Shown here in pieces: positions 2,118 through 61,128 of a stretch of 64,000 nucleotides of DNA (its first letter is position 1; each line of letters begins with the position of its first letter). The notes below the pieces were generated by a model that made no database searches, was not told the origin of the DNA, and was given only the letters and a program-made list of their open reading frames with translations. The translations under genes were made by a program, and so were the position numbers. Origin of the DNA: a virus. The DNA lies in IMG/VR virus record IMGVR_UViG_3300045988_120991, positions 96,001-160,000 of that record; one strand, 5' to 3'.

Positions 2118-2163
2118 TTAATTTTGTACTGTAAGTATAACACCACTTGCAATATTTGTCAAG
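2118..2163 (-). promoter_or_regulatory. sigma-70-type promoter with conserved downstream box
   Basis: The minus strand reads CTTGACAAATATTGCAAGTGGTGTTATACTTACAGTACAAAATTAATGAAGGAGG, giving TTGACA, a 17-nt spacer, TATACT and then the box ACAGTACAAAATTAA. Confidence 0.75.
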
Positions 2164-2166
2164 AGG

Positions 2167-2646
2167 TTATTTACGCAATTTTCCACCTTGCATATATGCT
2201 TTATTTGAGTTGAACTCTTTTATCATCTGTTCAAAGGGTTTATATGCCGTGCAAGTCTTATCAGTAATGGTCAAATCACTTCTCTGTCTAGGAACATAAG
2301 TCCTATTTTCTTGTTTCTTATACAAATCAACAGAATGTCCTTGAATTTTCTGCATTCTACTCTTAAACTCTTTACCACTTTGACTTGTGATGTATTCATA
2401 CATCTCTTGCAGAAGTTCATTCTCTTCTTTTGCACAACGGCGCTTTAATCTAAGCTCACGAAGAGTCTTATACATTACATACCCCTTGTACATATCTTTT
2501 GGTGCAGAAAGCTCTATTTCATGGTTTATATCATTAAGTTCATCTTCTGTTTGTTTAATAACTTCAAGGTTGCGCTCATAATTTGTCACAACATCTTTGA
2601 AGATGTCAATAATAGCTGTTGAATAATCACCAACAATATTCGGCAT
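2167..2646 (-). CDS. hypothetical protein (159 aa)
   Basis: Track ORF in tight same-strand packing. I see no recognisable motif. Confidence 0.6.
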   Translation of the reverse strand: MPNIVGDYSTAIIDIFKDVVTNYERNLEVIKQTEDELNDINHEIELSAPKDMYKGYVMYKTLRELRLKRRCAKEENELLQEMYEYITSQSGKEFKSRMQKIQGHSVDLYKKQENRTYVPRQRSDLTITDKTCTAYKPFEQMIKEFNSNKAYMQGGKLRK

Positions 2647-2660
2647 TTAAGCACCTCCAA

Positions 2661-2930
2661 TCATTTTTCATATTCTACATATCCACTTTCAAGTTCTTGT
2701 AGCTCTTTTTGAATTGAATGTTCTTTTATTTTTACTTTTCCATAAGCACCACTAAGTTCAAAATCTCGAATTTCTTTTTGTTTTTCACGTACTTTTTGAT
2801 TCAATACATCAAGTTCGTTTATTAAAGTATTAAATTTTTTCAAGCCATCACATTCACAATAGTAATATTCATAATAATGATCTTTATAACCACGCTTAAG
2901 TTCTTTCCCGCAGAATTTACATTTTCTCAT
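2661..2930 (-). CDS. small zinc-ribbon/coiled-coil protein
   Basis: I trimmed the track ORF to ATG 2930 (GGAGAATGATT upstream). It contains CKFCGK...CECDG cysteine pairs. Confidence 0.55.
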   Translation of the reverse strand: MRKCKFCGKELKRGYKDHYYEYYYCECDGLKKFNTLINELDVLNQKVREKQKEIRDFELSGAYGKVKIKEHSIQKELQELESGYVEYEK

Positions 2931-2991
2931 AATCATTCTCCAATCATATTTATGAGATCTTGAATATAAATAGAAATAACAAAATGCATTG

Positions 2992-3222
2992 TCATCTTTC
3001 AATGCTACTTGATACATTTTTCATATCTGCTTCGCACTCGGAACACGGATATATGTTCCGATTGTGATTCCTTCCTGTATCCCAGTGAAATAATCTTTTC
3101 CCATATTTATAGCACATATGAAACCTTTCTTCTCCATGAAACCTCAATCGTTCTTGCTCGGCTTCTGTTATGCTAAGTTGTGGACAATTGTTGCAAGTAT
3201 ACGTAAACTTCATTTTTGTCAC
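2992..3222 (-). CDS. Cys-rich zinc-finger protein (76 aa)
   Basis: Track ORF with CNNCP...CYKYG...CSECE cysteine pairs. Confidence 0.55.
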   Translation of the reverse strand: MTKMKFTYTCNNCPQLSITEAEQERLRFHGEERFHMCYKYGKRLFHWDTGRNHNRNIYPCSECEADMKNVSSSIER

Positions 3223-3238
3223 CTCTTTGAGTATATTT

Positions 3239-3640
3239 TCAAATCCTCAATACTACAAATGCAATCCAGGTGATAAAGATTTGTACCAAATGACATAACT
3301 GGTCTTGTACCAAGTTAATCTTCCTCAAATTTGCTTTTGAATTATCAACAATCATATGAATAAACAAATTAATTAAAAAGAATAATGCAATCACTAAGGA
3401 CGCATTATTTGTATTTGTTGTGTTAATCAACGTGTACACAGATGGAACAACCATAATCATAAATGCCCAGCTAAAACTATGCATGAATAATGCCATAATA
3501 TAATCATGTTTGTATAGTTCGTCTGGTGCATTTTGTTCCCAGTAGTTTTTCTGTTTTGCCGATGCTAACCATCCTTGCAAATAATAATCATCTACAATGT
3601 GTAGAAAAATCATAACTAATAGTAATAAAATCTTATACAT
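3239..3640 (-). CDS. integral membrane protein, DUF3307-like
   Basis: It has hydrophobic segments, and the N-terminal HIVDDYYLQ resembles the HxxxDFxxQ signature of DUF3307 as I recall it. Confidence 0.5.
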   Translation of the reverse strand: MYKILLLLVMIFLHIVDDYYLQGWLASAKQKNYWEQNAPDELYKHDYIMALFMHSFSWAFMIMVVPSVYTLINTTNTNNASLVIALFFLINLFIHMIVDNSKANLRKINLVQDQLCHLVQIFITWIAFVVLRI

Positions 3641-3666
3641 AGATTCTCACCTTTTGAAATTCTATT

Positions 3667-3888
3667 TTAGCCATTAGAAACATAATAATCATCATGACCA
3701 AATCTTACACAAGATTCACATTTGTATTTTTTATCCTCCAAATGAAGACATCCATAGCAGCCTTTATGCTGTTCTTCCCATTCATTGATTGCATTGGTAG
3801 CCAACTGAATAACTTGCATTTCGTAAGGGTCAAAACAAAAATCTTGTTCATTGATAATATCTGTAAATTCTTTTGCTAACTTTCCCAT
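3667..3888 (-). CDS. hypothetical protein (73 aa)
   Basis: Track ORF with a CYGC...CESC motif. Confidence 0.55.
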   Translation of the reverse strand: MGKLAKEFTDIINEQDFCFDPYEMQVIQLATNAINEWEEQHKGCYGCLHLEDKKYKCESCVRFGHDDYYVSNG

Positions 3889-6940: not shown

Positions 6941-7774
6941 TCAAATTAGTTTCTCGACATAGTTTCTGTCTTGAGTAAAGATAGGAATTTCATTATCAAT
7001 TACCCACTTACTTCTCTTGATATAACCACAAATATTTCCTACTTCATCATACTCGGTAAGACTATCATCAGCCTTAATGCAGCAGCTACCACGCTTTAGA
7101 GTTGTAGAATAATCATTCCAGTTGATGCCCTTCTGTAGCATAAGCATATCCTGAATGTTGTTGCAAGACTTACCGTGAAGTTCCTTCTGACTGAAGTTTG
7201 CCTGACCTACAGACTGGATAGAGTTGCGAGTGGCATCTTGCTGTCGCCAGATTAGCGCATTGCAAACTTCCTCCTTGGGAATTGTAAAGACACGAGAATC
7301 AAACATAGCACCTTTATTTCTTGCGTTAATGAGAATTTTTGTATATTCGGTTAAATCCTTTGTAATACCACAATCGGCATCAAGATTGTTGTCAATATAC
7401 TTTACAATATTGTCGTTAAATGCTTTATTAAATGCTAGCGTTGCCATACTTGCAGATACACTACACATCTTCTGTAAATTGTTGCCGAACCAAGCGTCAG
7501 TTGTAAGCTCTGCATAGTCAGTAAGCACAAGAGAAATTTCGTCGCTCTGTGTATAGCCAAGGACACAACCTTGGATGTTCTCACAGAGATACTTCATAGT
7601 ATCTTGCATAGTCTTTACAAAAATATCATCAAAAGGTTTTTTCATGCCCTTAGTAAAAGTATGACCAGCTTTCATATCCATTCTAATAATAATCGGCATT
7701 CTACGAGTTAAATAATACCGACTGATATTCTCGTAGTTATTTTTCATACGGTCGCCCAGCGTAGTCTTATCCAT
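6941..7774 (-). CDS. Thg1-like protein (tRNA-His guanylyltransferase / 3'-5' polymerase family)
   Basis: The N-terminus LGDRMKNNYE, the segment RMD..GHTFTKGMKKPFD and the motif GYTQSDEISLV match the Thg1/TLP signature blocks (GDRMK.YE, R.DG..F, KP.D, SDE.S) as I recall them. Confidence 0.8.
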   Translation of the reverse strand: MDKTTLGDRMKNNYENISRYYLTRRMPIIIRMDMKAGHTFTKGMKKPFDDIFVKTMQDTMKYLCENIQGCVLGYTQSDEISLVLTDYAELTTDAWFGNNLQKMCSVSASMATLAFNKAFNDNIVKYIDNNLDADCGITKDLTEYTKILINARNKGAMFDSRVFTIPKEEVCNALIWRQQDATRNSIQSVGQANFSQKELHGKSCNNIQDMLMLQKGINWNDYSTTLKRGSCCIKADDSLTEYDEVGNICGYIKRSKWVIDNEIPIFTQDRNYVEKLI

Positions 7775-11299: not shown

Positions 11300-11322
11300 A
11301 TTTGTTCCTCCTTTAATTTTGT

Positions 11323-11357
11323 ACTGTAATTATATCATATACTACTCATTTGTCAAG
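11323..11357 (-). promoter_or_regulatory. sigma-70-type promoter with conserved downstream box
   Basis: The minus strand reads CTTGACAAATGAGTAGTATATGATATAATTACAGTACAAAATTAAAGGAGG. Confidence 0.75.
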
Positions 11358-11404: not shown

Positions 11405-12280
11405 TTAATGTGCTGCAAGGTCTGCTTCGTGAAGCAAATCCACAGAATTTTTAAGATATGCTGGAAGATTTTTATAACACTTTTCATTTAGAAATGGTGC
11501 CATATGAGTGCTTACAAGCCAAGCAACATCTATTCTGATTTCATCTGCAACAAGACCATATATCATATATGCTCCAACGCATTGATGCTGATAGAAGTGT
11601 GCAGTATCGCTCGGTTCACCTTTTGCATTAACGAATGCTTTGACATATGGTTTACCAACATCGTGAAATGATGCTGCAAGTGCCATAATGTTATCACACA
11701 TATCGTTATTTACAATATACTTATATGCCGACTCACAATGATTGTAAATATCTAAAGTATGATGTGGGTTATCATGTAGAATTCGCATGGCCTCTGTAGA
11801 ATCATCTATGTATTTTTGCATATCAAATCCATCTGGAAAAATGACTCTAATTTTATCAATGCCTTCATCATAATAAGGAGCTTGAAAACGCTTAAGCATT
11901 CTGTCAATAACTTCTTTACCAACAGTACGTTCTCTTGCGGCATCACGTTCAATGCAAGTTTCAATAGGTGCCCAAATAATATGGCATTCAATTTGTGCAA
12001 ACCTTGGGCACTTTGTAATGATGCTAGCTCTATCTTTTCTTGTGATATTTGTAGCATCATAGATGACATCAAAACCATTATTCAATAACATAATTGCTCT
12101 ATCCTGCATCAATGCAAATACATCTGAAGGATTTCCCTGTATATTTTCATCTCCATATAGTTCTTTTCTGATAGCATCAGAAGACAGATGATATGTATAG
12201 CTATTTTTCATTTTTTCTGCATAAGTGGTTTTCCCAGAACCAGGAATTCCACAAAGAAGTATTAGTACAGGTCTAGTCAT
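11405..12280 (-). CDS. P-loop polynucleotide-kinase-like domain fused to an HD phosphohydrolase domain (RNA end-healing candidate)
   Basis: The N-terminus carries Walker A GIPGSGKTTYA. The C-terminus carries HD-domain elements (H...LAASFHDVGKP...H) resembling the HD domains of CCA-adding enzymes. Confidence 0.7.
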   Translation of the reverse strand: MTRPVLILLCGIPGSGKTTYAEKMKNSYTYHLSSDAIRKELYGDENIQGNPSDVFALMQDRAIMLLNNGFDVIYDATNITRKDRASIITKCPRFAQIECHIIWAPIETCIERDAARERTVGKEVIDRMLKRFQAPYYDEGIDKIRVIFPDGFDMQKYIDDSTEAMRILHDNPHHTLDIYNHCESAYKYIVNNDMCDNIMALAASFHDVGKPYVKAFVNAKGEPSDTAHFYQHQCVGAYMIYGLVADEIRIDVAWLVSTHMAPFLNEKCYKNLPAYLKNSVDLLHEADLAAH

Positions 12281-12528: not shown

Positions 12529-14007
12529 TTAATTCTCCTCCTCATTAATCTCTTCTTGTGCTTCTTCCATATCAGGAGTAGTTGCCTCAGCCTTTACTAG
12601 ACCCTCAAGACACTTAAATGCAAAGTTCTTATGTTTATATGCGCAGAATTTAGGCTTATTCACAATACGAACTACTACACCCTCGCGTACATGAATCTTG
12701 CCAATAGGATCGGGGCCATCATAATATTGCTCTGCAATATTTTTAATCCATTCACCAGGGGTCCCTTCACGACAGACTCTCCAAGTGCCATGCTCGCCAT
12801 AACAATCATAACCTTCTTCAAGACCCTCATCAGCGGGGATAAAACCTCTCCACAACATCGGGACACATTTACAACCCATTTGCTCACAACGATAACGCAT
12901 GAAGTCAGGAGAATACTCTACTACATCTCCGTCTTCATTTGTCATAGTCATACGATAAACATAAAAGTCAGACTGAGGAACTTCTCTTTCAGTGATACCA
13001 ATACCTTCTTTGCCGTCTGGATTACAGCCATAAGAGAAAGTCGTAGTCTTACCATACTGCTTCACAAATTCCTTATCATTGAGCTTCTTATTATCAGCGG
13101 TTGCCATAATAGGAGTGCTAGTATGGGTGAACCCAACTACCTCATAGTAGACCTCTTCACCCTTATGTAGTTTGCCCTCAAAGAACTTGGAGTGCTGTTC
13201 GCGGAACTCATTAGAGCCATAGTAGCCGCCATCAAAATTCTCAAGAACGGTACGACGAGTACCAGACACATAGCCCCAATTATAAATAGGAGTTGCAGAA
13301 GAAAGTCCAAGATTCGCGAACTTCTGAGTTATAGCACCAACTTTATCACCAGACATTACCGCATCGAGAGCAGCTTGATAGATACGGTTTGTACATCTGT
13401 AACCCTTAAATACAGGTAAATAGCCGGTGCGCTGAGAAGTACCATGCATCTTTAGAGTGATTTCAATCTGGTCTCCCGCCTGAAAAGCTCCAAGATTATA
13501 GGCTAGCTGTTCAGTATCAGCATGTTCAGTAAACAGAGGTGCGATAGGAACCTTCTTCTTACGAGTATGATTACCATTTGTAGCATGACCACTACGGGTA
13601 TTTCTGCGAGGAATGTACTTAGCGCAAATCTCATGTCCATTGAATGTAGTAATAACATCTCCAACTTTTAGATTGGATACGTCACCAAAAGATTCTAAGC
13701 AAGCCAATGGTAGAAATAGACCATCTGACTTTTCACCACGAAGCCTAATAGAAGTTACATTGCGCTTGTCTGGGTCCATATAACCGCCAATGTTATTACC
13801 ATCTACATCCTTCTTACGAAGCAAATTATTAGTATCTGCAAACTCAACAGAAAGTTGACCATCCGTAGGGAAATATACACCAATCTGACCGTCTGTATAT
13901 TCCATACTTACACAAACCGTATTGCCAAAACACTCACCAAGCTGTAATCTGTCTGCGTTAGGATGCTTACGCAGATTTTTAATTGTTGTTACATACGCAT
14001 TATACAT
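12529..14007 (-). CDS. RNA ligase (Rnl2-like nucleotidyltransferase) with N-terminal tRNA-binding OB domain
   Basis: The N-terminal LRKHPNADRLQLG matches the HPNAD[KR]L hallmark of Trbp111/EMAPII-type tRNA-binding domains. The ligase motifs are I ITLKMHGTS (KxHGT), IV REGVVVRI and V YKHKNFAF. Confidence 0.8.
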   Translation of the reverse strand: MYNAYVTTIKNLRKHPNADRLQLGECFGNTVCVSMEYTDGQIGVYFPTDGQLSVEFADTNNLLRKKDVDGNNIGGYMDPDKRNVTSIRLRGEKSDGLFLPLACLESFGDVSNLKVGDVITTFNGHEICAKYIPRRNTRSGHATNGNHTRKKKVPIAPLFTEHADTEQLAYNLGAFQAGDQIEITLKMHGTSQRTGYLPVFKGYRCTNRIYQAALDAVMSGDKVGAITQKFANLGLSSATPIYNWGYVSGTRRTVLENFDGGYYGSNEFREQHSKFFEGKLHKGEEVYYEVVGFTHTSTPIMATADNKKLNDKEFVKQYGKTTTFSYGCNPDGKEGIGITEREVPQSDFYVYRMTMTNEDGDVVEYSPDFMRYRCEQMGCKCVPMLWRGFIPADEGLEEGYDCYGEHGTWRVCREGTPGEWIKNIAEQYYDGPDPIGKIHVREGVVVRIVNKPKFCAYKHKNFAFKCLEGLVKAEATTPDMEEAQEEINEEEN

Positions 14008-14022: not shown

Positions 14023-14037
14023 TTAATTTTGTATCGT
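14023..14037 (-). promoter_or_regulatory. conserved box copy (GATACAAAATTAA) without an obvious -35/-10
   Basis: The minus strand reads CTTAACGATACAAAATTAATGAGAGGAGAAC and lies just upstream of the ligase start. Confidence 0.5.
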
Positions 14038-16125: not shown

Positions 16126-16533
16126 TTAATCAAATGTCTCTTGAATATATCCATTATCCGTTGTATAGTTAATCTTTTTAATGCCAAGGCTCTTGATAAG
16201 TTTTTGACATCCAGGACATGGTTTGCTCAATGCTTTGGTGCCGTTTTTCCACTCTCTATATATGTAAATCTGTACATCTTTCCAGTTGATATCTTTTCGA
16301 TTCATAAGTGGTAAAAGAGCAGACGTTTCTGCGTGAAGAAAATGATTTGTATCTCCGTCAAAACGTTCTTTATTAAGTTCTTTTTGAAGGGGGTGGCTTT
16401 TTTTGATGTTACAAGCACTTGAAATAACTCTGTGCTTATATATCACGGCGCAACCTATATGATGCTTTTCAAAGTCGCTTAATTCAGAAACGGCTTTTGC
16501 CACATTAAAATATGTTCTATCCTTTTTTGTCAT
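16126..16533 (-). CDS. dCMP/CMP deaminase
   Basis: It has the zinc-binding motifs HAETSAL and PCPGCQKLI. Confidence 0.85.
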   Translation of the reverse strand: MTKKDRTYFNVAKAVSELSDFEKHHIGCAVIYKHRVISSACNIKKSHPLQKELNKERFDGDTNHFLHAETSALLPLMNRKDINWKDVQIYIYREWKNGTKALSKPCPGCQKLIKSLGIKKINYTTDNGYIQETFD

Positions 16534-16536: not shown

Positions 16537-16551
16537 TTAATTTTGTACTGT
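16537..16551 (-). promoter_or_regulatory. conserved box copy filling the 17-nt gap before the deaminase start (no SD)
   Basis: The minus strand reads GGATTAACAGTACAAAATTAATTTATG. Confidence 0.5.
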
Positions 16552-17076: not shown

Positions 17077-17121
17077 TTAATTTTGTACTGTAATTATAAC
17101 AGATATTTTCTATTTGTCAAG
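17077..17121 (-). promoter_or_regulatory. sigma-70-type promoter with conserved downstream box
   Basis: The minus strand reads CTTGACAAATAGAAAATATCTGTTATAATTACAGTACAAAATTAATTTAGGAAGG. Confidence 0.75.
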
Positions 17122-18241
17122 ATGTTCTTAACCTTTCAATAAGTTTTTTTAGAATTTTAGCAATGTCAGAAATATCATGCTGATTCAATGTTTCGTCCAA
17201 TGTAATACGAATCGTGCTTAAAGCTTCTGCATCTGTAAGTCCAATAGCTTTTAACGTGCTACTTGGCACAGTCTCCCCACTACTACAAGCAGAACCCGCA
17301 GAGATATAAATCCCACACATACTTGCTAGAGTCACAAGGTCACTAGCTTTTACTCCATCAATACGAACAGAAATATTATTGCACAGACGATTAGTATCAA
17401 GTTCTGGACCATTTAGATGTACTCCAGGAATTTCAAGAATTTTCTTTGCAAGTTCATCCCTATTAAATCTAGTACAAATGTTTGTATAGTCGTGTAACGT
17501 TCCTCTATTAATCTCTAGTGCTTTACCCATAGCTGCTATTGCAGGAGTATTTTCAGTTCCTCCTCGTTTGTGTAATTCTTGACTTCCATAAATAATCGGT
17601 GATAAATCAATTGTATCTTTGCAGTATAAAAATCCTGCACCTCTTCCACCTCTAAACTTCTGTGCTGAAATACTCATCATATCTATTCTAAGCTTATCAA
17701 CATCAATTCTTGATTCAGGGAAATATTGAACGGCATCCACATGTAATATACAATTATATTTATGCGTAATATATGAAATAGATTTAATATCTTGGAGTGT
17801 TCCAATTTCAGAGTTTGCATACTGAATACTAACAATAGAATTATTATGTTCTTTTATTGTATCTTCTAAAATATTTGCATCAATATTTCCAAATTCATCT
17901 ACTGGAATATAATGTACATTAGTAAATTTATGATGATTTAAAATTTCACTAATAGATTTATGCTCTAATTGTGTCGTTATAATAGTGTCAAAATTTGTTC
18001 CACAAAGTGCTAAAGTGTTTGCCTCTACTCCACCACTTGTGAAAATTATTTCTTTAGGTTCACAATTAATGTCTGCTGCAATTTGATCTCTTACATTTTC
18101 AATTATATTTTTAGCATCTTGCCCCATCTCATGAGTCGAAGATGGGTTGCCATAATGATTATACATTACATCGGCAACCACATCTACAACTTCTTTGTAT
18201 GGTTGAGTAGTAGATGCGCAATCTAAAAAGTATTTCTTCAT
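17117..18241 (-). CDS. cysteine desulfurase (class V aminotransferase, NifS/IscS-like)
   Basis: The PLP-lysine region is SISAQKFRGGRGAGFLY and the active-site loop is SAGSACSSG. Confidence 0.85.
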   Translation of the reverse strand: MKKYFLDCASTTQPYKEVVDVVADVMYNHYGNPSSTHEMGQDAKNIIENVRDQIAADINCEPKEIIFTSGGVEANTLALCGTNFDTIITTQLEHKSISEILNHHKFTNVHYIPVDEFGNIDANILEDTIKEHNNSIVSIQYANSEIGTLQDIKSISYITHKYNCILHVDAVQYFPESRIDVDKLRIDMMSISAQKFRGGRGAGFLYCKDTIDLSPIIYGSQELHKRGGTENTPAIAAMGKALEINRGTLHDYTNICTRFNRDELAKKILEIPGVHLNGPELDTNRLCNNISVRIDGVKASDLVTLASMCGIYISAGSACSSGETVPSSTLKAIGLTDAEALSTIRITLDETLNQHDISDIAKILKKLIERLRTS

Positions 18242-18688: not shown

Positions 18689-18733
18689 TTAATTTTGTAT
18701 TATAATTATAACGCAAATTTCTCATTTGTCAAG
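18689..18733 (-). promoter_or_regulatory. sigma-70-type promoter with conserved downstream box
   Basis: The minus strand reads CTTGACAAATGAGAAATTTGCGTTATAATTATAATACAAAATTAATTGAGGAGG. Confidence 0.75.
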
Positions 18734-18777: not shown

Positions 18778-20007
18778 TTACATATAAATTGGATGTAGTT
18801 CGCATAGTTGACGAGCTATATCGGAGATATATTTCTTATTGCCATCGAAGTCTTTGATGGCCAACGAAATAAGTCCCGCCACATTTCTTGCGTCAAACTT
18901 ATCAAAGCCACGTGTAGTAATTGCGGGAGTCCCAATACGAAGACCACTAGTTACAAATGTGGATAGAGGGTCGTTAGGAATTGAATTTTTATTCGTTGTA
19001 ATGTTTACACTATCGAGCTTCTCCTGTAATTCTTTGCCAGTAATTCCTGTGTCTCTAAGGTCTAGAATCATTAGATGATTATCTGTTCCACCAGAAATAA
19101 GCTTAATGCCGTTTGTTTTAAATACACTTGCCATAGCCTTTGCATTATTAATAACATTATTCTGATATTCTGCAAATTCTGTCTTCAGTGCTTCACCAAA
19201 ACATACTGCCTTTGCTGCAATTATATGTTCTAGTGGACCGCCCTGAGTACCAGGAAATACTGCCGAATCAATCTTCTTTGCAAGTTTACTCTTGCACAAA
19301 ATAACTGCACCACGAGGGCCTCTCATGGATTTATGAGTCGTAAATGTGCAAACATCAGCATAAGGGACAGGACTTGGATGTACACCTCCTGCTACAAGTC
19401 CAGCAATATGCGCCATGTCTACAAAGAGATAAGCGCCTACTTCATCTGCAATTTCACGGAACTTTGCAAAATCAATGATACGCGGATATGCAGAAGCTCC
19501 TGCCAAAATCATCTTAGGCTTGTTATTTAGTGCAAGGTCCCTCACATTATCATAGTCAATAAAGCCATTTTCGCCTACTCCATAACGAACTACGTTAAAG
19601 TACTTGCCAGAAATGTTGAATGGTGCTCCGTGACTGAGATGCCCACCAGCAGAAAGATCCATGGACAGAACGGTATCACCAGGGGATAATAGTGCATAAA
19701 ATACTGCCAAATTTGCGCTTGCTCCTGAATGCGGCTGCACGTTTGCATGTTCTGCTCCAAATAGCTTTTTACAACGTTCAATTGCAAGAAGTTCTACTTC
19801 ATCAATATACTGACATCCACCATAGTATCTCGCATGAGGCTTTCCTTCTGCGTATTTATTGGTTAGAACAGATGACATTGCGTCAAGAACTGCTGGAGAC
19901 ACAATGTTTTCTGATGCAATAAGTTCGATTGTACCACGCTGCCTGTTAAGTTCTTTCAAACAAATATCGTATACTTCTACATCTTGCTTTTTTAGGTTGT
20001 CTAGCAT
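18778..20007 (-). CDS. glyA: serine hydroxymethyltransferase
   Basis: It shows full-length SHMT similarity, including the PLP-lysine motif [12 protein letters not shown] moved the start to ATG 20007 (AAGGAG 8 nt upstream); the track start at 20016 is GTG. Confidence 0.95.
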
Positions 20008-20025
20008 TATATTCACTCCTTACTT

Positions 20026-20055: not shown

Positions 20056-20131
20056 TGGAGCACGTGACGAGGCTTGAACTCGCAACAGCCAGATTGGAAA
20101 TCTGGAACTCTACCAATTGAGCTACACGTGC
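20056..20131 (-). tRNA. tRNA-Gly(UCC)
   Basis: Acceptor GCACGTG/CACGTGC, anticodon loop TTTCCAA, T-arm GCGAG-TTCAAGC-CTCGT, CCA encoded. Confidence 0.9.
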
Positions 20132-20136
20132 ATTTG

Positions 20137-20213
20137 TGGTACACCTTGAAGGACTCAAACCTTCGACCTTCTGATCCGTAGTCAGACGTTCTATTCAACT
20201 GAACTAAAGGTGC
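20137..20213 (-). tRNA. tRNA-Arg(ACG)
   Basis: Acceptor GCACCTT/AAGGTGT, anticodon loop CTACGGA, T-arm GAAGG-TTTGAGT-CCTTC, CCA encoded. Confidence 0.9.
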
Positions 20214-20218
20214 ATATA

Positions 20219-20293
20219 TGGTGCCCGTGGAGAGATTCGAACTCTCGACTCACGGCTTAAAAGGCCGTTACTCTACCACTGAGTTACACGAGC
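20219..20293 (-). tRNA. tRNA-Lys(UUU)
   Basis: Acceptor GCTCGTG/CACGGGC, anticodon loop CTTTTAA, T-arm GAGAG-TTCGAAT-CTCTC, CCA encoded. Confidence 0.9.
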
Positions 20294-20296
20294 ATA

Positions 20297-20373
20297 TGGT
20301 CGGAGTGCAGGGGCTTGAACCCTGGGCCTCTAGATCCCAAATCTAGCGCTCTACCAAACTGAGCTACACCCCG
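20297..20373 (-). tRNA. tRNA-Pro(UGG)
   Basis: Acceptor CGGGGTG/CACTCCG, anticodon loop TTTGGGA, T-arm CAGGG-TTCAAGC-CCCTG, CCA encoded. Confidence 0.9.
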
Positions 20374-20378
20374 AAATG

Positions 20379-20455
20379 TGGCACCCCGTGTTGGACTCAA
20401 ACCAACGACACATGGCTTAGAAGGCCATTGCTCTGTTCAACTGAGCTAACGGGGC
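20379..20455 (-). tRNA. tRNA-Arg(UCU)
   Basis: Acceptor GCCCCGT/ACGGGGT, anticodon loop CTTCTAA, T-arm GTTGG-TTTGAGT-CCAAC, CCA encoded. Confidence 0.9.
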
Positions 20456-20460
20456 ATATA

Positions 20461-20555
20461 TGGCGCCGAGGGTGGGATTCGAACCCACGGGCCGAATATA
20501 AATCGGCACACAAGATTTCAAGTCTAGGCGCTTATGACCACTTGCGCACCTCGGC
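20461..20555 (-). tRNA. tRNA-Ser(UGA), type II
   Basis: Acceptor GCCGAGG/CCTCGGC, anticodon loop CTTGAAA, long variable arm GCCGA-TTTATAT-TCGGC, T-arm GTGGG-TTCGAAT-CCCAC, G73, CCA encoded. Confidence 0.85.
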
Positions 20556-20668
20556 ATATTAACTTTGTAATCCCAAACTCCTCCACACAGATTACTGGGC
20601 ACCCCTTACCTCGAATGCTAGTTAGTAGCAACAAACGTTTGTGCCGTTTCCACAAATAAAGATACACC

Positions 20669-20863
20669 TCACTGCGTATTAACCTCTGTATATTCAGTAC
20701 TAGATAAGGTAATCATTCTTTCGCATCCGTCCTGTGGACAAAAAATATTTGCAACCCCAAGATTATTTATTCCGTCAGACGGATTAAATGCAAATTCACA
20801 ACCACAATAAGGGCAGATTGCCTTATAGGTCTTAACTTTGCCTCCCTTGATAATATACTTCAT
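20669..20863 (-). CDS. small zinc-ribbon protein (64 aa) inside the tRNA operon
   Basis: ATG 20863 follows GAGGTGTTATT. It contains CPYCGC...CPQDGC. Confidence 0.55.
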   Translation of the reverse strand: MKYIIKGGKVKTYKAICPYCGCEFAFNPSDGINNLGVANIFCPQDGCERMITLSSTEYTEVNTQ

Positions 20864-20874
20864 AATAACACCTC

Positions 20875-20994
20875 TTAATTAAACTTGTTCAACTGCCGCT
20901 TAACTTTACGGATAAGGCCCTCGTTCATAGTCTCGCCTCGTGCCAAAAGCTTTGCTAGACGATTTTCATAATGTTCCTTAGTGCGAAAGTTCAT
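20875..20994 (-). CDS. small basic protein (39 aa), not in track
   Basis: ATG 20994 follows TTTAGGAGGTACATATT. The translation is MNFRTKEHYENRLAKLLARGETMNEGLIRKVKRQLNKFN. Confidence 0.45.
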   Translation of the reverse strand: MNFRTKEHYENRLAKLLARGETMNEGLIRKVKRQLNKFN

Positions 20995-21020
20995 AATATG
21001 TACCTCCTAAAATTTTTGTA

Positions 21021-21143
21021 TGGCAGGGGTAGTAGGGTTCGAACCTACGATGCGGGAGTCTGGTCAAGGTAGTTGGTACTGCCCCAACTAAATTCACTTG
21101 AATACCTTGAAAGTCCCGTGCCTTACCACTTGGCTATACCCCT
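21021..21143 (-). tRNA. tRNA-Gln(UUG) interrupted by a 49-nt insert in the anticodon loop
   Basis: The structure is AGGGGTA-TA-GCCAAGTGGTAAGGC-A-CGGGA-[CTTT|49 nt|GAC]-TCCCG-CATC-GTAGG-TTCGAAC-CCTAC-TACCCCT-G-CCA. The Gln-like D-arm, weak 1:72 pair and G73 support the Gln assignment. Confidence 0.7.
21061..21109 (-). other. 49-nt intervening sequence in tRNA-Gln
   Basis: The sequence is CAAGGTATTCAAGTGAATTTAGTTGGGGCAGTACCAACTACCTTGACCA. It forms the P1 helix TCAAGGTA/TACCTTGA, the hairpin GTTGG-GGCAGTA-CCAAC and an 11-nt tail ending GACCA. Confidence 0.65.
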
Positions 21144-21146
21144 ATA

Positions 21147-21221
21147 TGGTGGATCTGACGTGACTCGAACACGCAACTTCTTCCTTGCAAGGGAAGCTTT
21201 CTCCCATTGAAATACAGACCC
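21147..21221 (-). tRNA. tRNA-Ala(UGC)
   Basis: Acceptor GGGTCTG/CAGATCC with G3:U70, anticodon loop CTTGCAA, T-arm GCGTG-TTCGAGT-CACGT, CCA encoded. Confidence 0.9.
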
Positions 21222-21383
21222 AGATTTTATGAGATAGCTACACTATGTATACCTAATGTAGCTATTAGGTTTTCTAACTCCTCACCTCAAACCATTTTTA
21301 TCTGTCTCTCCTCTTAGCCAATCAGATTTGAGTGACTTGAACGGACCGCCGTCCTCACATTGATAAAATAGTAAAATCAACAA

Positions 21384-21474
21384 TGGCGCGATAGGAAGGC
21401 TTCGAACCTTCGCACGGCTTTCACCGCCTAGCAGATTAGCAATCTACCCTCTTCAACCACTTGAGTACTACCGC
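21384..21474 (-). tRNA. tRNA-Ser(GCU), type II
   Basis: Acceptor GCGGTAG/CTATCGC, anticodon loop TTGCTAA, long variable arm, T-arm GAAGG-TTCGAAG-CCTTC, G73, CCA encoded. Confidence 0.85.
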
Positions 21475-21477
21475 ATA

Positions 21478-21681
21478 TTAATCTAATGTTCTTCCAGTTG
21501 CTAATTCAAAAATTAAATTATCAACACAGGGAATGTGCATTGCCTCTATCTCATATTGAGTACGATGTTCAATGTCATTAATATAGATAGGACAATCTTT
21601 ACATTCTACATTTTCACAAAAACGAACAGCTTTTTCTACTATTTTAGAATTCGCAAATTTTATATATTCTTCCCAACGCAT
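21478..21681 (-). CDS. hypothetical Cys-containing protein (67 aa) inside the tRNA operon
   Basis: I trimmed the track ORF to ATG 21681 (GGAGGATTTT upstream). Confidence 0.5.
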   Translation of the reverse strand: MRWEEYIKFANSKIVEKAVRFCENVECKDCPIYINDIEHRTQYEIEAMHIPCVDNLIFELATGRTLD

Positions 21682-21701
21682 AAAATCCTCCATAAAACGA
21701 G

Positions 21702-21730: not shown

Positions 21731-21753
21731 CCACGGTCCCAATCGAGCTTTTC

Positions 21754-22004: not shown

Positions 22005-22006
22005 TA

Positions 22007-22083: not shown

Positions 22084-22094
22084 ATATCTTTGGA

Positions 22095-42951: not shown

Positions 42952-42996
42952 TTAATTTTGTATTGTAATTATATCATAAAATTTGGATTTGTCAAG
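42952..42996 (-). promoter_or_regulatory. sigma-70-type promoter with conserved downstream box
   Basis: The minus strand reads CTTGACAAATCCAAATTTTATGATATAATTACAATACAAAATTAACGAAAGGAG. Confidence 0.75.
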
Positions 42997-46414: not shown

Positions 46415-46792
46415 TTAATTATCTCCTTCATTAATTAAAATTTTTTCATAATTTTCTTTATACATGAAAATATATCCATGAGAATATTTATGACGACCAG
46501 AACAACATTCACCAATACTAGATTTAGAAAATCCAGTTTGATTTGAAGCTTCTGATATGCTTGAATACTCCTTAATATATTTATTATCTTTTGTTAATTG
46601 CACAACTAATCTTTCTCTATGTGATTTATATTTATATACAATAGATGGATCGTATTCGTCTTCGTATAACCACATAAAACCACCGGATGATATTTTTATA
46701 TGTCTCACACAGGCACTAATTTGCTGATATCTAACTCCGGTACACTTTTCTGCTTCTTTTAATGAATTATATGTTTGTAAATATTCTCCATT
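46415..46792 (-). pseudogene. homing-endonuclease remnant: two DNA-binding modules, no nuclease domain, no ATG
   Basis: The frame is open from the twin TAA TAA at 46793..46798. It encodes GEYLQTYNSLKEAEKCTGVRYQQISACVRHIKISSGGFMWLYEDEYD and then a second module, both matching the repeats of ORF 34218..35507. Confidence 0.55.
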
Positions 46793-46816: not shown

Positions 46817-46853
46817 TTAATTTTGTATTATAAAGGGAGAAATTAATCTCCCT
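46817..46853 (-). promoter_or_regulatory. terminator-like hairpin followed by a TATAAT-like element and a box copy
   Basis: The minus strand reads AGGGAGA-TTAATT-TCTCCCT-TTATAATACAAAATTAATGGAGG. Confidence 0.5.
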
Positions 46854-48049: not shown

Positions 48050-48064
48050 TTAATTTTGTACTGT
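48050..48064 (-). promoter_or_regulatory. conserved box copy with a weak -10 (TATTAA)
   Basis: The minus strand reads TTATATTAATACAGTACAAAATTAATGAAAGAAAGGA. Confidence 0.5.
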
Positions 48065-48065: not shown

Positions 48066-48269
48066 TTAATATAAAAAATATCTTGGATCGTTATTTATAT
48101 CCCAATATAAATACTTATCATCCAAGTTGTCGCCTATCCATAACTGTAATGTTTCGTCTTCACATTCTTCACAAAACATTTCATAATATAGTTCTTCTGT
48201 CTTATATGGATATTTTATGTAATGCACTGCACCACAACTGCAGCATTGGTAGTATCCTCCTACTTTCAT
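48066..48269 (-). CDS. zinc-ribbon protein (67 aa)
   Basis: It contains CCSCG...CEECE. Confidence 0.5.
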   Translation of the reverse strand: MKVGGYYQCCSCGAVHYIKYPYKTEELYYEMFCEECEDETLQLWIGDNLDDKYLYWDINNDPRYFLY

Positions 48270-48348: not shown

Positions 48349-48378
48349 ATTATACCACATAATGTAAGTTTTGTCAAT
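48349..48378 (-). promoter_or_regulatory. sigma-70-type promoter without the box
   Basis: The minus strand reads ATTGACAAAACTTACATTATGTGGTATAATCACAAC. Confidence 0.65.
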
Positions 48379-48625
48379 AGTTTAAAATAATTTTTATTGT
48401 CATCCTATTTCCGTTGATTACGATCCTTCCATCATCAACCTCATACGAAACAACATCATCTTTATCAATACATATTGCCTGTCCATACACACGGAACCCC
48501 CATCCCGCTTCTGTCTCTGGTACAAACTTCATCTGAATATGTTGCTTGTCAAAGAGCTTATGCTCAGTATAAATATCTACATTTTTCCCCTTTATTTCTT
48601 TTAATGCATCAATTAATTGTCTCAT
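48374..48625 (-). CDS. hypothetical protein (83 aa)
   Basis: Track ORF. The SD is AAAAGGGGAGAAAAAC. Confidence 0.55.
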   Translation of the reverse strand: MRQLIDALKEIKGKNVDIYTEHKLFDKQHIQMKFVPETEAGWGFRVYGQAICIDKDDVVSYEVDDGRIVINGNRMTIKIILNY

Positions 48626-48661: not shown

Positions 48662-48691
48662 ATTTTAGCATATTTGACCATAAATTACAAG
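48662..48691 (-). promoter_or_regulatory. promoter with extended -10
   Basis: The minus strand reads CTTGTAATTTATGGTCAAATATGCTAAAATATCC (TTGTAA, 17-nt spacer, TGCTAAAAT). Confidence 0.55.
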
Positions 48692-48721
48692 AACAAATGT
48701 TCTCCTTCTATAAATTACTAA

Positions 48722-48736
48722 TTAATTTTGTGCTGT
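48722..48736 (-). promoter_or_regulatory. conserved box variant (ACAGCACAAAATTAA)
   Basis: The minus strand reads CTGCTTACAGCACAAAATTAATTAG. Confidence 0.45.
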
Positions 48737-49680: not shown

Positions 49681-49709
49681 ATTATACAGTACAATATTAA
49701 TTTTGTCAA
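49681..49709 (-). promoter_or_regulatory. sigma-70-type promoter with the box inverted and placed in the spacer
   Basis: The minus strand reads CTTGACAAAATTAATATTGTACTGTATAATACAG. The plus strand 49685..49700 reads TACAGTACAATATTAA. Confidence 0.65.
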
Positions 49710-49712
49710 GTT

Positions 49713-50690
49713 TTAAATAATGCTATCAAGAATATTAACAGCTTCCTGCTTCTGCTTATCGAGTGCAGCGACATATCTCATAGTCGTATTGACATTATTA
49801 TGCCCCAAAATTTCCTTTATTACTTGCACTGGTACATCGTGTGCTCCCATTTGTGTTGCTGCAGTTGCTCTAAGCTTATGAGGTGTAATATGCTTATCTG
49901 TAACACCCTCAATATATTTCTTCAATAGCAATTCTATATTCTTTGGTGACATTCTATTATTCCATTGTGATACAAACAAAGGACCTCTTTCATCTACATC
50001 AAAATAATCCCTTCTGTCCTGAAGCCAATTTAATAACAATTGTTTCATATTTTCACCAAATCCAATAGTTCTTTCTTTTCTTCCCTTTTCAATAACTGTG
50101 ATTGTATTTGTCTTGAAATTCACATCTTCTACATTTATTTGCACCAATGCAGACTTTCTTAATCCGGTAGAAATGAAAAGTGAGAAGATACACAAATCTC
50201 TATTAAACAATCTTTCTGTAGACTTTTCTTTTATGTTTGCAAACAGCTTACTAATCTCGTCCTCCTCCAAGAATGTTACTTCACTTTTTGCTTTTACTTT
50301 TGGTCTCTTTGCCCCTTCTACCGGATTATTATCTGTAAAACCAAGATCATTCAAGAATACGAATAATTTTTTAATTGCCGACCATTTTGTTGCAAGAATA
50401 CTATCGCCCGTTCTTACAATCTCTCCTTCTTTTTCCTTTGTTCTCTGAGAAGAAATAAACTGCCTTACATTGGATTGAGTTACATTCTTATAATACTCAT
50501 CGTCCTTTTTTCCTCCTGTAATATATTCCATGAATTCAACATTATAATCAATATAATGCTCTATCGTATTATAAGATCTATCATCTTCTTCCATATAACT
50601 ATAAAATTCTGTAAAGATAGGCGGAAGCTTTTTCAATTTTGCCTTAATAACTTTTTGCTTATTCAATTCAGATTCCAAACGTCCGTTCAT
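49713..50690 (-). CDS. tyrosine recombinase / integrase (XerC/D-like)
   Basis: The C-terminal catalytic region reads TGLRKSAL...HKLRATAATQM...LGHNNVNTTMRYV. The SD is AAGGAGGATATTATT. Confidence 0.85.
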   Translation of the reverse strand: MNGRLESELNKQKVIKAKLKKLPPIFTEFYSYMEEDDRSYNTIEHYIDYNVEFMEYITGGKKDDEYYKNVTQSNVRQFISSQRTKEKEGEIVRTGDSILATKWSAIKKLFVFLNDLGFTDNNPVEGAKRPKVKAKSEVTFLEEDEISKLFANIKEKSTERLFNRDLCIFSLFISTGLRKSALVQINVEDVNFKTNTITVIEKGRKERTIGFGENMKQLLLNWLQDRRDYFDVDERGPLFVSQWNNRMSPKNIELLLKKYIEGVTDKHITPHKLRATAATQMGAHDVPVQVIKEILGHNNVNTTMRYVAALDKQKQEAVNILDSII

Positions 50691-51799: not shown

Positions 51800-51861
51800 C
51801 CTTCCTTTCTTTTATAATAACGCCTTAATTTCGTATTGTCAATAATTTTGAGAATATTTTG

Positions 51862-55527: not shown

Positions 55528-55542
55528 TTAATTTTGTATTGT
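55528..55542 (-). promoter_or_regulatory. conserved box copy next to TTGACC
   Basis: The minus strand reads TTGACCAACATTAACAATACAAAATTAACGCAAGGAGG. Confidence 0.5.
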
Positions 55543-56250: not shown

Positions 56251-56280
56251 ATTATACATTAATTTTGTATCCTTGTCAAG
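56251..56280 (-). promoter_or_regulatory. sigma-70-type promoter with the box inside the spacer
   Basis: The minus strand reads CTTGACAAGGATACAAAATTAATGTATAATGGAGG. Confidence 0.7.
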
Positions 56281-59028: not shown

Positions 59029-59029
59029 A

Positions 59030-59458: not shown

Positions 59459-59472
59459 TTTTAAATCCTCCT

Positions 59473-59682
59473 TTAATATTTTGTTTCTCTTTCATTCATC
59501 AGCCAGCCAACGCCTTTGCTGTGGTTTTCATCAAACCAATGCCAAATCTCCTCTCTGTGAGTTCCTTTGCTCCAACCTTTCCAATCAACATCAAGGCATT
59601 CATTTTCGTCAATAGGTACATCTTCAAGCTCGTCCCACATAGATTCAAGAAGTTCATCATCGTATTTCTGATAAACACTCAT
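59473..59682 (-). CDS. hypothetical protein (69 aa)
   Basis: Track ORF. Confidence 0.5.
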   Translation of the reverse strand: MSVYQKYDDELLESMWDELEDVPIDENECLDVDWKGWSKGTHREEIWHWFDENHSKGVGWLMNERETKY

Positions 59683-60336
59683 TTACATTTCCTCCTCGTC
59701 GTCTTCTGTAATATACTCTACTCTAATCGCAACAATTTTCCCTTCCTCATTATGCGCAGTCCAACAACAATAACTGCCATCTCCATATCCAGAAGAAGAA
59801 GCAAAGCCAAGACCATCAATAGTATTTCCATCATTAATTTGAATCGTTTGCCAACTTACCTTTGTGTTGTTGCTCCATTCTCTGTACTTTTTTAACTGTT
59901 CAGCCATATCTTCTGCATTATAATCAAAAACGAATGCTACATAATTTGGATTTTTCTTAGTCGTTGTTGTAAGTTCACATACCCTCCAATACCAATCGTC
60001 ATTTACGTGTTCGGTTTCATTATCATCACTATGATATTTCTTATAATATTCATAATCAAAAATACCAGCCTGACCACTATCAACGCCGACCACGAAGCTT
60101 TCCTTACTGTATTCAAGGAACTTATTCATATAATCTGCATGTACAACCTGAATTGCGGAAACTCGTCTACCCCATGCGTCTTCATCAGAAGTTTCCACCG
60201 TACACTTATAGTTGCCTTTGAGCACATTATTAATCGCGCCTTGACACCAAGTATTCATTCCATAACATGGATCGGAAACCATCACCTTATCATCAAGAGT
60301 TATAAAACCCTTATCATTAATTTCAATATTATTCAT
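59683..60336 (-). CDS. DUF4241-like protein (217 aa)
   Basis: The motifs VSDPCY and SSGYGDGSY resemble DUF4241 as I recall it. Confidence 0.5.
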   Translation of the reverse strand: MNNIEINDKGFITLDDKVMVSDPCYGMNTWCQGAINNVLKGNYKCTVETSDEDAWGRRVSAIQVVHADYMNKFLEYSKESFVVGVDSGQAGIFDYEYYKKYHSDDNETEHVNDDWYWRVCELTTTTKKNPNYVAFVFDYNAEDMAEQLKKYREWSNNTKVSWQTIQINDGNTIDGLGFASSSGYGDGSYCCWTAHNEEGKIVAIRVEYITEDDEEEM

Positions 60337-60547
60337 TCCTCATCTTCCTTTCATATTCATCAATTTGTTCCATACTCAACCATACAGGCTTCTCTTCAAG
60401 TTCATTCCAAATTCGTCTCATGGCTTCAATGTGTTTTTCAACACTCTTTCCCCATAGATATTTTGTACTTCTGTTTCCAAAATCAAGATAATAGTCGCAA
60501 TCTGACCTCATACGGTCAAGCATTTTGTATTGAAATTCACTATTCAT
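60329..60547 (-). CDS. hypothetical protein (72 aa)
   Basis: I trimmed the track ORF to ATG 60547, just after the upstream TAA. Confidence 0.5.
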   Translation of the reverse strand: MNSEFQYKMLDRMRSDCDYYLDFGNRSTKYLWGKSVEKHIEAMRRIWNELEEKPVWLSMEQIDEYERKMRNE

Positions 60548-60548
60548 A

Positions 60549-60773
60549 TTAATCATCAACCTCACATTCAAAGAAGTTCTCATCACATTCTGAACATACA
60601 TAATCGTATTGTTCTAAATCACTTAGAAGAAGCGGTCTTCCACAATGTGGACATCTCTTTTCTGTAATGAGCATATCAATCAACGCCTTTACCTTAAAAA
60701 TTGTGTACGTATCAAGCTCAATATTTTTCAATTCTTTTCTAATGGTTAGTCTTTTCTCGTAGTTCTTAGACAT
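60549..60773 (-). CDS. zinc-ribbon protein (74 aa)
   Basis: It contains CPHCG...CSECD. Confidence 0.5.
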   Translation of the reverse strand: MSKNYEKRLTIRKELKNIELDTYTIFKVKALIDMLITEKRCPHCGRPLLLSDLEQYDYVCSECDENFFECEVDD

Positions 60774-60787
60774 TTAATTATCCTCCT

Positions 60788-61099
60788 TTAATTTTCTTCG
60801 GAACAAATATCCATGATTGTATCAACCAAATTCTGCAAAGAATCCACTCCATACCCATGTAGCGGAATCATTAACTCTCCAGTTTCCTTATCTCTCAGTT
60901 CGCAATAATGTGTCCATCCATCTTCCTCAAGATAATCGAAAGAAATGTCAAGTTCGTTTCCGTTAATAGAATTAATGTCATAAGTCACAATCCTTGTGTC
61001 AAAAGATTTCGGTCTTCTTCCTTCCCCATTCCAATTAGTAGGATTCATTTTCTCCAAAAAATCATCTGCAATTTTTTCTGCCTTTTCTCTGTTGAACAT
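60788..61099 (-). CDS. hypothetical protein (103 aa)
   Basis: Track ORF. The SD AGGAGG follows box 61114..61128. Confidence 0.55.
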   Translation of the reverse strand: MFNREKAEKIADDFLEKMNPTNWNGEGRRPKSFDTRIVTYDINSINGNELDISFDYLEEDGWTHYCELRDKETGELMIPLHGYGVDSLQNLVDTIMDICSEEN

Positions 61100-61113
61100 A
61101 ATTAAATCCTCCT

Positions 61114-61128
61114 TTAATTTTGTATCGT
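61114..61128 (-). promoter_or_regulatory. conserved box copy (GATACAAAATTAA) without an obvious -35/-10
   Basis: The minus strand reads TTTAAGACGATACAAAATTAAAGGAGGATT. Confidence 0.5.

Follow-up and report, generated by a model that had tools for sequence, protein, structure and literature searches.

MrpR (YopR, SroF), the master repressor of the Bacillus phage SPβ, is monomeric and has the fold of a tyrosine recombinase but lacks recombinase activity (PMC10516654). It was found by sequencing after affinity purification of chromatin (ChAP-seq) and by electrophoretic mobility shift assay (EMSA) to bind a 15-bp element, SPBRE, in about 10 SPβ promoter regions (PMC10516654). SroF of phage phi3T was crystallised on a 26-bp asymmetric box, of which it reads 24 bp including A-tracts and which occurs in many dispersed copies; it is released by the small antirepressor Sar, and the Sar promoter, with its LexA box, adjoins the repressor gene (bioRxiv 10.1101/2025.11.27.690993). 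In cluster A mycobacteriophages (L5 gp71, TipsytheTRex) a monomeric repressor has more than 20 asymmetric sites, located at promoters and in short intergenic gaps, and these sites are oriented with transcription and are proposed to block both initiation and elongation (PMC9283540). Here we describe a box of about 15 nt that is repeated along a 64-kb stretch of phage DNA (positions 96,001 to 160,000 of IMG/VR virus record IMGVR_UViG_3300045988_120991; referred to as the window, to whose positions all coordinates refer), together with a gene of the window that encodes a 297-aa homologue of MrpR.

The box is most likely a new example of the known SPBRE/SroF-type phage silencing system, in an uncultured clade of gut phages. 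More specifically, we consider that its copies form an array of operators and roadblocks on which the phage's own MrpR/YopR/SroF-type repressor acts, a reading to which we assign a probability of about 0.7. An earlier note on this DNA, made from its letters and open reading frames (ORFs), had suggested that the box could be the operator of a phage regulator, a conserved initial transcribed sequence, or a signal for RNA processing or translation. The first of these is supported, because a MrpR/SroF homologue is encoded in the window and because the operators known for that family in SPβ and phi3T match the box in copy number, asymmetry, orientation and geometry. The transcribed-sequence and translation options appear insufficient on their own, because at canonical promoters the predicted transcription start falls downstream of the 5' third of the box, which is nevertheless equally conserved there, and because copies are found in promoter spacers, in inverted orientation and in front of non-coding sequence.

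The box and its placement

The minus strand is transcribed throughout the window, as indicated by long ORFs, tRNAs and GC skew, and is the strand of all of the genes. On this coding strand the box reads ACA[GA]TACAAAATTAA(TG), and about 22 copies plus one inverted copy were found in the window (Table 1). Searched as the 15-mer ACAGTACAAAATTAA, it gave 25 matches at up to 3 mismatches, 10 of which were exact and 24 of which were on the minus strand. Dinucleotide shuffles of the window gave 6.5 +/- 2.4 matches, and none of 100 shuffles reached 25. A position weight matrix trained solely on copies from outside the window, applied at a cut-off of at least 14 bits, found 21 minus-strand sites and 1 plus-strand site where 0.8 were expected. 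The earlier description of a box repeated at about 20 sites is therefore correct, and the repetition is far beyond chance; the frequency was not that predicted from AT-rich composition, which the earlier note had named as the objection to be faced. Its coordinates were all confirmed apart from one typing error (11313-11327 rather than 11323), and two copies absent from its list, at 1237-1251 (exact) and 51825-51839 (2 mismatches), were added. Two further matches with 3 mismatches, at 33829 and 51379, lie inside ORFs and are probably chance.

To define the motif, 136 non-redundant copies were collected from related gut phage contigs of about 150-170 kb, using as seed only the 3' ten bases (ACAAAATTAA). 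Despite this 3'-only seeding the 5' bases were kept (A 98%, C 88%, A 92%, R 96%, T 84%), such that all 15 positions of the box were conserved. Two additional bases on the 3' side were partly conserved (T 68%, G 67%), and beyond both edges the information content fell to background. The conserved unit, ACARTACAAAATTAA(TG), thus covers 15-17 positions and is long, non-palindromic and dispersed, with sharp edges. Many IMG/VR contigs of 150-170 kb, the majority of them from a single gut data set, contained exact copies, and about 46 loci carried several copies on a single strand. The relatives were mosaic around the conserved boxes, with the same box and promoter standing before different genes, as might also be expected if promoter/box cassettes were linkers kept for module shuffling and had no regulatory role. 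We regard this as the least probable of the explanations considered, since the conservation is position-specific and sharply bounded while the spacers between -35, -10 and box vary, which points to selection on the sequence itself, and since a linker function would account for neither the strand bias nor the palindromic box pair of the repressor promoter.

The copies fell into three classes according to their relation to a promoter. A -10 element ended 1 nt before the box in 35 of the 136, the box lay 4-23 nt downstream of the -10 in 26, with a cluster at 14-18 nt, and no promoter was recognisable for the other 75 (55%), more than half of all copies. The 5' bases were equally conserved across the three classes; since ACART is retained as well at promoterless copies as at canonical promoters, the motif constitutes one DNA unit. 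Within the window, the arrangement of -35, -10 and box that the earlier note had called canonical was found with 1-nt spacing at 2118, 11313, 17077, 18689, 25583, 26113, 37378 and 42952; at 28849 the box was indeed further downstream, 16 nt past the -10, but at 32458, which had been grouped with these sites, the start of the box overlaps with the -10. Several copies close to gene starts without a -35 or -10 were seen when the flanks were printed, and two to four copies lie inside promoter spacers, including those at 26218 and 56259 that had been predicted to do so. The predicted inverted copy at 49686-49700 also lies in a spacer, where it forms an imperfect palindrome with 49697-49711. The proposed link to the TAACAGCAA hairpin loops found no support, the likeness being limited to ACAG..CAA, and no sign of a meaning was found.

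The frequent position 1 nt past the -10 raises the possibility that the box is an extension of the core promoter, acting as a discriminator and initial transcribed sequence that tunes the start or escape of sigma-A polymerase, in which case the promoterless copies would be decayed or recombined remnants. Strong phage promoters do carry conserved A-rich initial transcribed regions, 35 of the 61 promoter-linked copies have exactly this spacing, and the box offers a T/A start-site context. However, the 75 promoterless copies are equally well conserved, many of them being exact, 26 copies are displaced downstream of the -10, and there are copies in spacers and one that is inverted. Moreover, three minus-strand consensus promoters of the window, at 25745, 28999 and 48377, are perfect (TTGACA-17-TATAAT) and have no box. 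For these reasons we consider a core-promoter function highly unlikely. Beyond two of these box-free promoters, 28999 and 48377, more than 40 nt pass with no obvious Shine-Dalgarno sequence (SD), and they may yield further non-coding transcripts.

The relation of the box to translation signals is close and not fixed. An SD and a start codon followed the box in 83% of the 136 copies, with the SD mostly beginning 1-10 nt past the box (range -1 to +33 nt) and the start codon mostly lying 11-23 nt beyond it. Promoterless copies typically occupied the gap from the upstream stop codon to the next SD, and some overlapped the stop codon. At 16537 the absence of an SD noted earlier was borne out (sequence TTAAtttATG). 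Approximately 15% of the copies preceded non-coding, tRNA-like or structured sequence.

These features could suggest an RNA leader element, such as a translation enhancer or standby site, a stabiliser of the 5' end or an endonuclease site, which would give processed as well as primary transcripts a shared 5' end of the form ACAAAAUUAA-SD. Consistent with this, 24 of the 25 copies are on the sense strand, promoterless copies fill stop-to-SD gaps, the box at 16537 takes the place of the SD, and the A-rich, G-poor sequence would be unable to pair with an SD. Nevertheless, the 5' ACART, which precedes the expected start at the 35 canonical promoters, is equally conserved there, one copy directly follows a terminator-like hairpin, the spacing between box and SD is variable, and no Rfam family matched the box. 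The copies in promoter spacers (26218, 51825 and 56259) and the inverted copy at 49686 are unlikely to work as RNA, and since some 15% of copies stand before non-coding or tRNA-like sequence, the box is not only a translation signal. Furthermore, the experimentally defined DNA operators of phi3T share the strand bias, the SD adjacency and the promoterless copies, so that such features are no argument for RNA. A function in the leader RNA instead of the DNA is thus unlikely, and as a variant of the operator reading, the box could have an additional role in the mRNA leader.

A short conserved sense-strand repeat directly upstream of many start codons, the start-associated sequence (SAS), is also known from cluster K mycobacteriophages. 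The SAS includes the SD and has a near-fixed distance to the start codon. In contrast, the window box excludes the SD, its spacing varies by about 10 nt, and it also occurs in promoter spacers and before non-coding RNA.

Several other ideas were set aside as sole explanations. These were sigma-dependent pausing or Q-type antitermination, nut/boxA-like antitermination, MazF/RNase Y-type cleavage sites and a T4-late-like -10 element; each was prompted by a likeness, had no supporting gene and left the spacer and inverted copies unexplained. De novo k-mer searches of Geobacillus E3 and Bacillus pW2, tried as comparators, returned only promoter-embedded AT-rich repeats (ATAATGATATAAT, TAAAATATAA) that were inseparable from -10 elements, which makes them weak comparators.

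A candidate repressor and its relatives

The 297-aa protein matched the Pfam families MrpR_N_CB (PF22822; 5.1e-15) and MrpR_C_cat (PF22823; 1.3e-5). In a phmmer search of the PDB it matched the YopR/MrpR chains 8bj6, 8bjv and 8a0a at about 1e-11 and 9rd5 at 1e-10. There were 347 metagenomic homologues, and both Pfam domains were present in the 120 listed. At the position of the catalytic Arg I the protein has EGVAG, corresponding to E(G/E)VSG in MrpR (V137/S138), where the adjacent integrase has TGLR; for the C-terminal His, Arg II and Tyr the alignment was unreliable. The protein appears to have an integrase fold in which Arg I is lost. Among the approximately 113 ORFs of the window no other transcription regulator was recognised, including sigma factors, helix-turn-helix (HTH) regulators and RNA polymerases.

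The last result bears on whether the box might be a promoter for a phage sigma factor or a YonO-like polymerase, directing middle or late initiation near the SD. Short AT-rich late promoters are known in phages, such as TATAAATA of T4, which the box resembles, and SPβ-like phages encode a polymerase of their own, YonO. The box is also a sharply bounded, strand-specific unit of 15-17 bp that precedes many genes without a -35 or -10. However, no gene for a sigma factor or a transcribing polymerase was recognised in the window, the SD often begins 0-2 nt past the box and would be cut by a start downstream of it, and the box serves early, replication and nucleotide-metabolism genes. As the inverted and spacer copies do not fit either, a promoter of this kind is very improbable.

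Evidence connecting the box to the MrpR-like protein came from the repressor locus and its relatives. The overlapping inverted box pair in the repressor promoter (49686-49711) was identical in 7 relatives, even where the flanks differed. In all 8 loci that encode a MrpR-like protein 70-98% identical to that of the window, the box was the commonest 10-mer, with 6-8 copies per 21 kb on one strand. One of these 8, the mosaic relative L132, has a repressor of 70% identity, whereas its integrase, SSB-like protein and other neighbours are 33-50% identical. Loci with a MrpR-like protein of at most 28% identity had 0-1 copies of the box. One gut clade (L134, L137 and L142) was found to have a different box, TAATGWTTTAATCAAA, which likewise lies after the -10 and abuts the SD.

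The three loci of that clade correspond to IMG/VR 3300045988_160425, _143395 and _153448, and their MrpR-like protein is 26% identical to that of the window. Their box, TAATG(T/A)TTTAATCAAA, was present in 7-8 copies per 21 kb on one strand, after a -10-like TATAAT. In another set of relatives (L009, L027, L085, L110, L117 and L118) a second motif, CAGTTCAAGGGA, with the variants CAGTTCAAG and CAGTTCAAACG, was observed in the interval from the -10 to the box, and several of its occurrences front non-coding or tRNA-like sequence with ACAGCAAATTTA.

Downstream of the repressor gene, the LexA-like site (48691-48702) lies between that gene and an 83-aa ORF and abuts a promoter-like TTGTAA-17-TAAAAT. 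Variants of GAAC-N4-GTTC were present at the same place in relatives (L025 and L104). Beside the 83-aa ORF is a 67-aa ORF (48066-48269) with an acidic, Cys-rich product.

Comparison with described systems and proposed mechanism

The window is a phage region of 35% GC that had no close cultured relative in a megablast search of 8 kb against INPHARED. The closest match to its polymerase, at 45% identity, was MT835469, in 43 kb of which there was no box and no consensus promoter. The genes of the window include those for a DnaE-type polymerase, RecJ, DnaB, AAA_24, primase-like and 3D-domain proteins, 14 tRNAs, and nucleotide-metabolism and RNA-repair-like functions. Its replication module is collinear with yorG-yorM of SPβ and with Bacillus phage pW2, and its polymerase shares 39-45% identity with the polymerases of large Bacillus and Geobacillus siphoviruses. 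The window belongs to a distant SPβ-like phage.

The likeness to SPβ extends to the regulatory anatomy. Both phages encode a protein of the same family and have an asymmetric, AT-rich element of about 15 bp spread across the early region and co-oriented with the genes. In our own extraction the SPBRE consensus was CAAATACAAATAATATGTATA, and most copies formed the spacer of TAGACA-N17-TATAAT promoters, while at yonX, yopV and yopM the element lay between the -10 and the SD and abutted the SD. Both of these arrangements occur in the window, and at 26218 and 51825 the ACA of the box ends the -35 as in SPβ. The integrase gene is upstream of the repressor gene in both, the replication module (AAA_24, DnaB, primase-like, RecJ, DnaE, 3D-domain) is syntenic, and yorM, the homologue of the window's 3D-domain gene, also carries an SPBRE. 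The differences are that the elements, CAAATACAAATAATATGTATA in SPβ and ACAGTACAAAATTAATG in the window, are not significantly similar, that the proteins are only about 23% identical, and that in the window no yopQ-like gene separates the integrase and repressor genes. The SPβ element was found in about 13 copies in the 84 kb scanned, mostly as part of the promoters themselves, whereas the window has about 22 copies in 64 kb, mostly just past the -10 or promoterless. The host of SPβ is Bacillus and that of the window is a gut member of the Bacillota, for which the bin suggests Faecalimonas, an uncertain assignment; the bins that contain relatives include one Faecalimonas and one 'Prevotella' that is probably mis-binned.

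A scan of phi3T (L151, KY030782 53813-94586) gave 16 boxes in 41 kb, all co-oriented with the genes, and several of them abut an SD. The density, about 1 per 2.7 kb, is equal to that of the window. Location at early promoters or the 5' ends of genes, with co-orientation with transcription, was thus found in the window and again in the SPβ and phi3T scans. In phi3T a monomeric repressor occupies one long asymmetric A-tract site, and a similar pairing of protein and box is predicted for the window. In addition, the sense 3' end of the phi3T box, ATAAAATTAMT, resembles ACAAAATTAAT in the window, and a LexA-type site and a small ORF adjoin the repressor gene in both. Unlike the window box, with 17 conserved bp, the phi3T box has 26 bp, and most promoter-linked copies in phi3T overlap the -35 or spacer rather than the +1 region. 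The small ORF of the window is unlike Sar, and no AimR-like protein or other arbitrium gene was recognised in the window.

The window also shares with the cluster A mycobacteriophages an array of more than 20 asymmetric promoter and gap sites oriented with transcription. There the repressor has an HTH and a stoperator domain, the sites are of 13 bp and GC rich, the host is actinobacterial and an elongation block has been shown; the candidate in the window is of integrase fold, and an elongation block by it would be a prediction. No protein of the HTH plus stoperator-domain (L5 gp71) type was recognised among the window ORFs.

Taken together, the candidate repressor would be a monomeric protein with a tyrosine-recombinase fold that lacks catalysis and reads the box as a long asymmetric site. 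By analogy with known systems, at copies that overlap promoters, either in the -35 and spacer or from about -5 to +12 after the -10, the bound protein would stop initiation or escape of sigma-A RNA polymerase. At copies 4-23 nt past the -10 or in stop-to-SD gaps, it would act as an orientation-dependent roadblock to read-through. All sites together would silence the early and replication region, in a lysogenic or carrier state or after shut-off of the early genes, and the repressor gene would be autoregulated through the inverted box pair in its own promoter. Release would probably occur via a small antirepressor expressed from the adjacent LexA-type site, which would place the switch under SOS control.

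Several observations weigh against this operator reading. The best ungapped alignment of the window box gave 11/17 identities with the phi3T box and 10/17 with that of SPβ, which is not significant against shuffles (p 0.27 and 0.56). Divergent box specificities are, however, to be expected in the MrpR/SroF family, since the phi3T and SPβ boxes also differ from each other, and a shared end, A(Y)AAAATTA(M)T, is only suggestive. The 17 bp conserved in the window box are fewer than the 24-26 bp read by phi3T SroF. With 55% of copies promoterless and 83% located 0-10 nt before an SD, a DNA-only model needs either compact gaps or a roadblock. The co-occurrence of box and protein among the relatives is confounded by overall relatedness, the clade with the different box being distant in all genes. 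In sequence, the 83-aa ORF resembles neither phi3T Sar (phi3T_99) nor SPβ yopT, a small ORF in a comparable position. Finally, a genome scan for integrated prophages gave only phage-sized contigs in bins of metagenome-assembled genomes (MAGs) and two or three chance matches, with no integrated copy among them, and the relatives are free contigs of 147-170 kb in metagenomes and MAG bins.

MrpR/SroF repressors might also act as polar, orientation-dependent elongation blocks ('stoperators'), a convergent counterpart in Bacillota phages of the L5 gp71 system. This extension, which we regard as possible but doubtful, is suggested by the promoterless, co-oriented boxes in stop-to-SD gaps of the window and by several similar boxes in phi3T. 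A roadblock role for the family is not described, and the promoterless stoperator-like positions in phi3T are not discussed, in PMC10516654 or bioRxiv 10.1101/2025.11.27.690993. Two such promoterless boxes of phi3T, both within operons, have the locus positions 6163 and 36747; they fall within the 3' ends of the upstream ORFs, phi3T_71 and phi3T_134, with the SD of the following gene directly adjoining.

Other features of the window and meaning of the array

Table 1. Box copies in the window and features of the repressor locus
Feature	Position	Strand	Remarks
Box	1237-1251	-	Exact, 28.7 bits; no promoter; TAA is the stop of the upstream ORF; followed by SD and ATG
Box	2118-2132	-	Exact; 1 nt past TTGACA-17-TATACT
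Box	11313-11327	-	Exact; 1 nt past TTGACA-16-TATAAT; SD abuts
Box	14023-14037	-	2 mismatches; begins on upstream stop codon; weak promoter 10 nt upstream
Box	16537-16551	-	Exact; fills the entire stop-to-ATG gap, no SD; downstream gene dCMP deaminase
Box	17077-17091	-	Exact; 1 nt past consensus promoter; downstream 3D-domain gene
Box	18689-18703	-	2 mismatches; 1 nt past consensus promoter
Box	25583-25597	-	Exact; 1 nt past consensus promoter of non-coding tRNA-like/hairpin region
Box	26113-26127	-	1 mismatch; 1 nt past consensus promoter
Box	26218-26232	-	2 mismatches; fused to promoter, TTG-ACAAAACAAAATTAA-TGCGC-TATAAT; SPBRE-type arrangement
Box	28849-28863	-	1 mismatch; 16 nt past -10
Box	32458-32472	-	Exact; upstream of DnaE-type polymerase gene; -10 overlaps box and RecJ stop codon
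Box	37378-37392	-	Exact; 1 nt past TTAACA-16-TATAAT
Box	42952-42966	-	1 mismatch; 1 nt past consensus promoter; downstream gene primase-like
Box	46817-46831	-	2 mismatches; directly 3' of hairpin; no -35
Box	48050-48064	-	Exact; 1 nt past upstream stop codon; no promoter
Box	48722-48736	-	1 mismatch; just downstream of repressor gene, followed by LexA-like site
Inverted box pair	49686-49711	plus 49686-49700, minus 49697-49711	Occupies -35 and spacer in the MrpR-like gene's consensus promoter
Box	51825-51839	-	2 mismatches; fused to TTGACA-17-TATTAT, ACA being the 3' half of the -35
Box	55528-55542	-	1 mismatch; begins on upstream stop codon; no promoter
Box	56259-56273	-	In spacer of consensus promoter, directly after terminator-like hairpin 56304-56285
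Box	61114-61128	-	2 mismatches; 1 nt past upstream stop codon; SD abuts
MrpR/YopR/SroF homologue gene, 297 aa	48762-49655	-	Candidate box binder; Pfam and PDB matches
Tyrosine integrase gene	49713-50690	-	Immediately upstream of repressor gene; order as yopP...yopR in SPβ
LexA/Cheo-like site GAACAAATGTTC (AGAACAAATGTTCT)	48691-48702		Sole GAAC-N4-GTTC in the window; 0.54 expected
83-aa ORF	48374-48625	-	Candidate antirepressor (by position only); 51% identical in L132

The canonical promoter and box at 25583 drive a non-coding stretch (25225-25597, minus strand) upstream of the gene at 23628-25247. This stretch contains a tRNA-like element (25427-25544) that matched the Rfam tRNA family with 42 bits and has a 57-nt insertion in the anticodon arm, followed by three hairpins, each starting T(A/T)ACAGCAA. 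It stands directly before a DUF2828/DUF7788 gene, the product of which has a DGSGSM motif and is possibly of the vWA type. The layout recalls Y-RNA-like or tRNA-like modules; the z-score of its fold was only -1.5. In searches for RNA families, tRNA was the sole family matched, both at the Rfam gathering threshold across the whole window and at E<=1 for 25100-25800. A cluster of 14 tRNA genes lies at 20056-23119 on the minus strand, and within it an extra 120-nt Rfam tRNA match (21024-21143) was not called by ARAGORN and possibly contains an intron.

Near the tRNA cluster are RNA-repair-like genes at 12529-14007, 11405-12280 and 6941-7774, the products being an RNA ligase-like protein (weak Pfam matches), a fusion of an AAA_33 kinase with an HD-like region and a Thg1-like tRNA-His guanylyltransferase. 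Auxiliary metabolic genes, at 18778-20016, 26232-27401, 17117-18241 and 16126-16533, encode a serine hydroxymethyltransferase (Pfam 2e-162), an adenylosuccinate synthetase-like protein, a class-V aminotransferase or cysteine desulfurase-like protein and a dCMP deaminase; the start codon of the dCMP deaminase is 3 nt past a box, with no SD. A GIY-YIG/NUMOD homing-endonuclease-like ORF (34218-35507) overlaps the 5' end of the RecJ ORF (32477-34270), and a small NUMOD-domain ORF (46415-46708) lies 3' of a hairpin and box. Both are probably mobile endonuclease insertions.

If the box is the operator of the MrpR-like protein, the integrase-fold repressor system, so far studied in SPβ-like phages of Bacillus, would be extended to abundant uncultured human-gut phages of about 150-170 kb. 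The operator consensus would then allow predictions of immunity groups, of early transcription units and of regulated non-coding RNAs in those phages. What may go beyond the published accounts is the large share of sites that are promoterless, co-oriented and abut an SD, suggesting an elongation block. These sites raise the question of whether, in the MrpR/SroF family, silencing is achieved by an elongation roadblock besides promoter occlusion.

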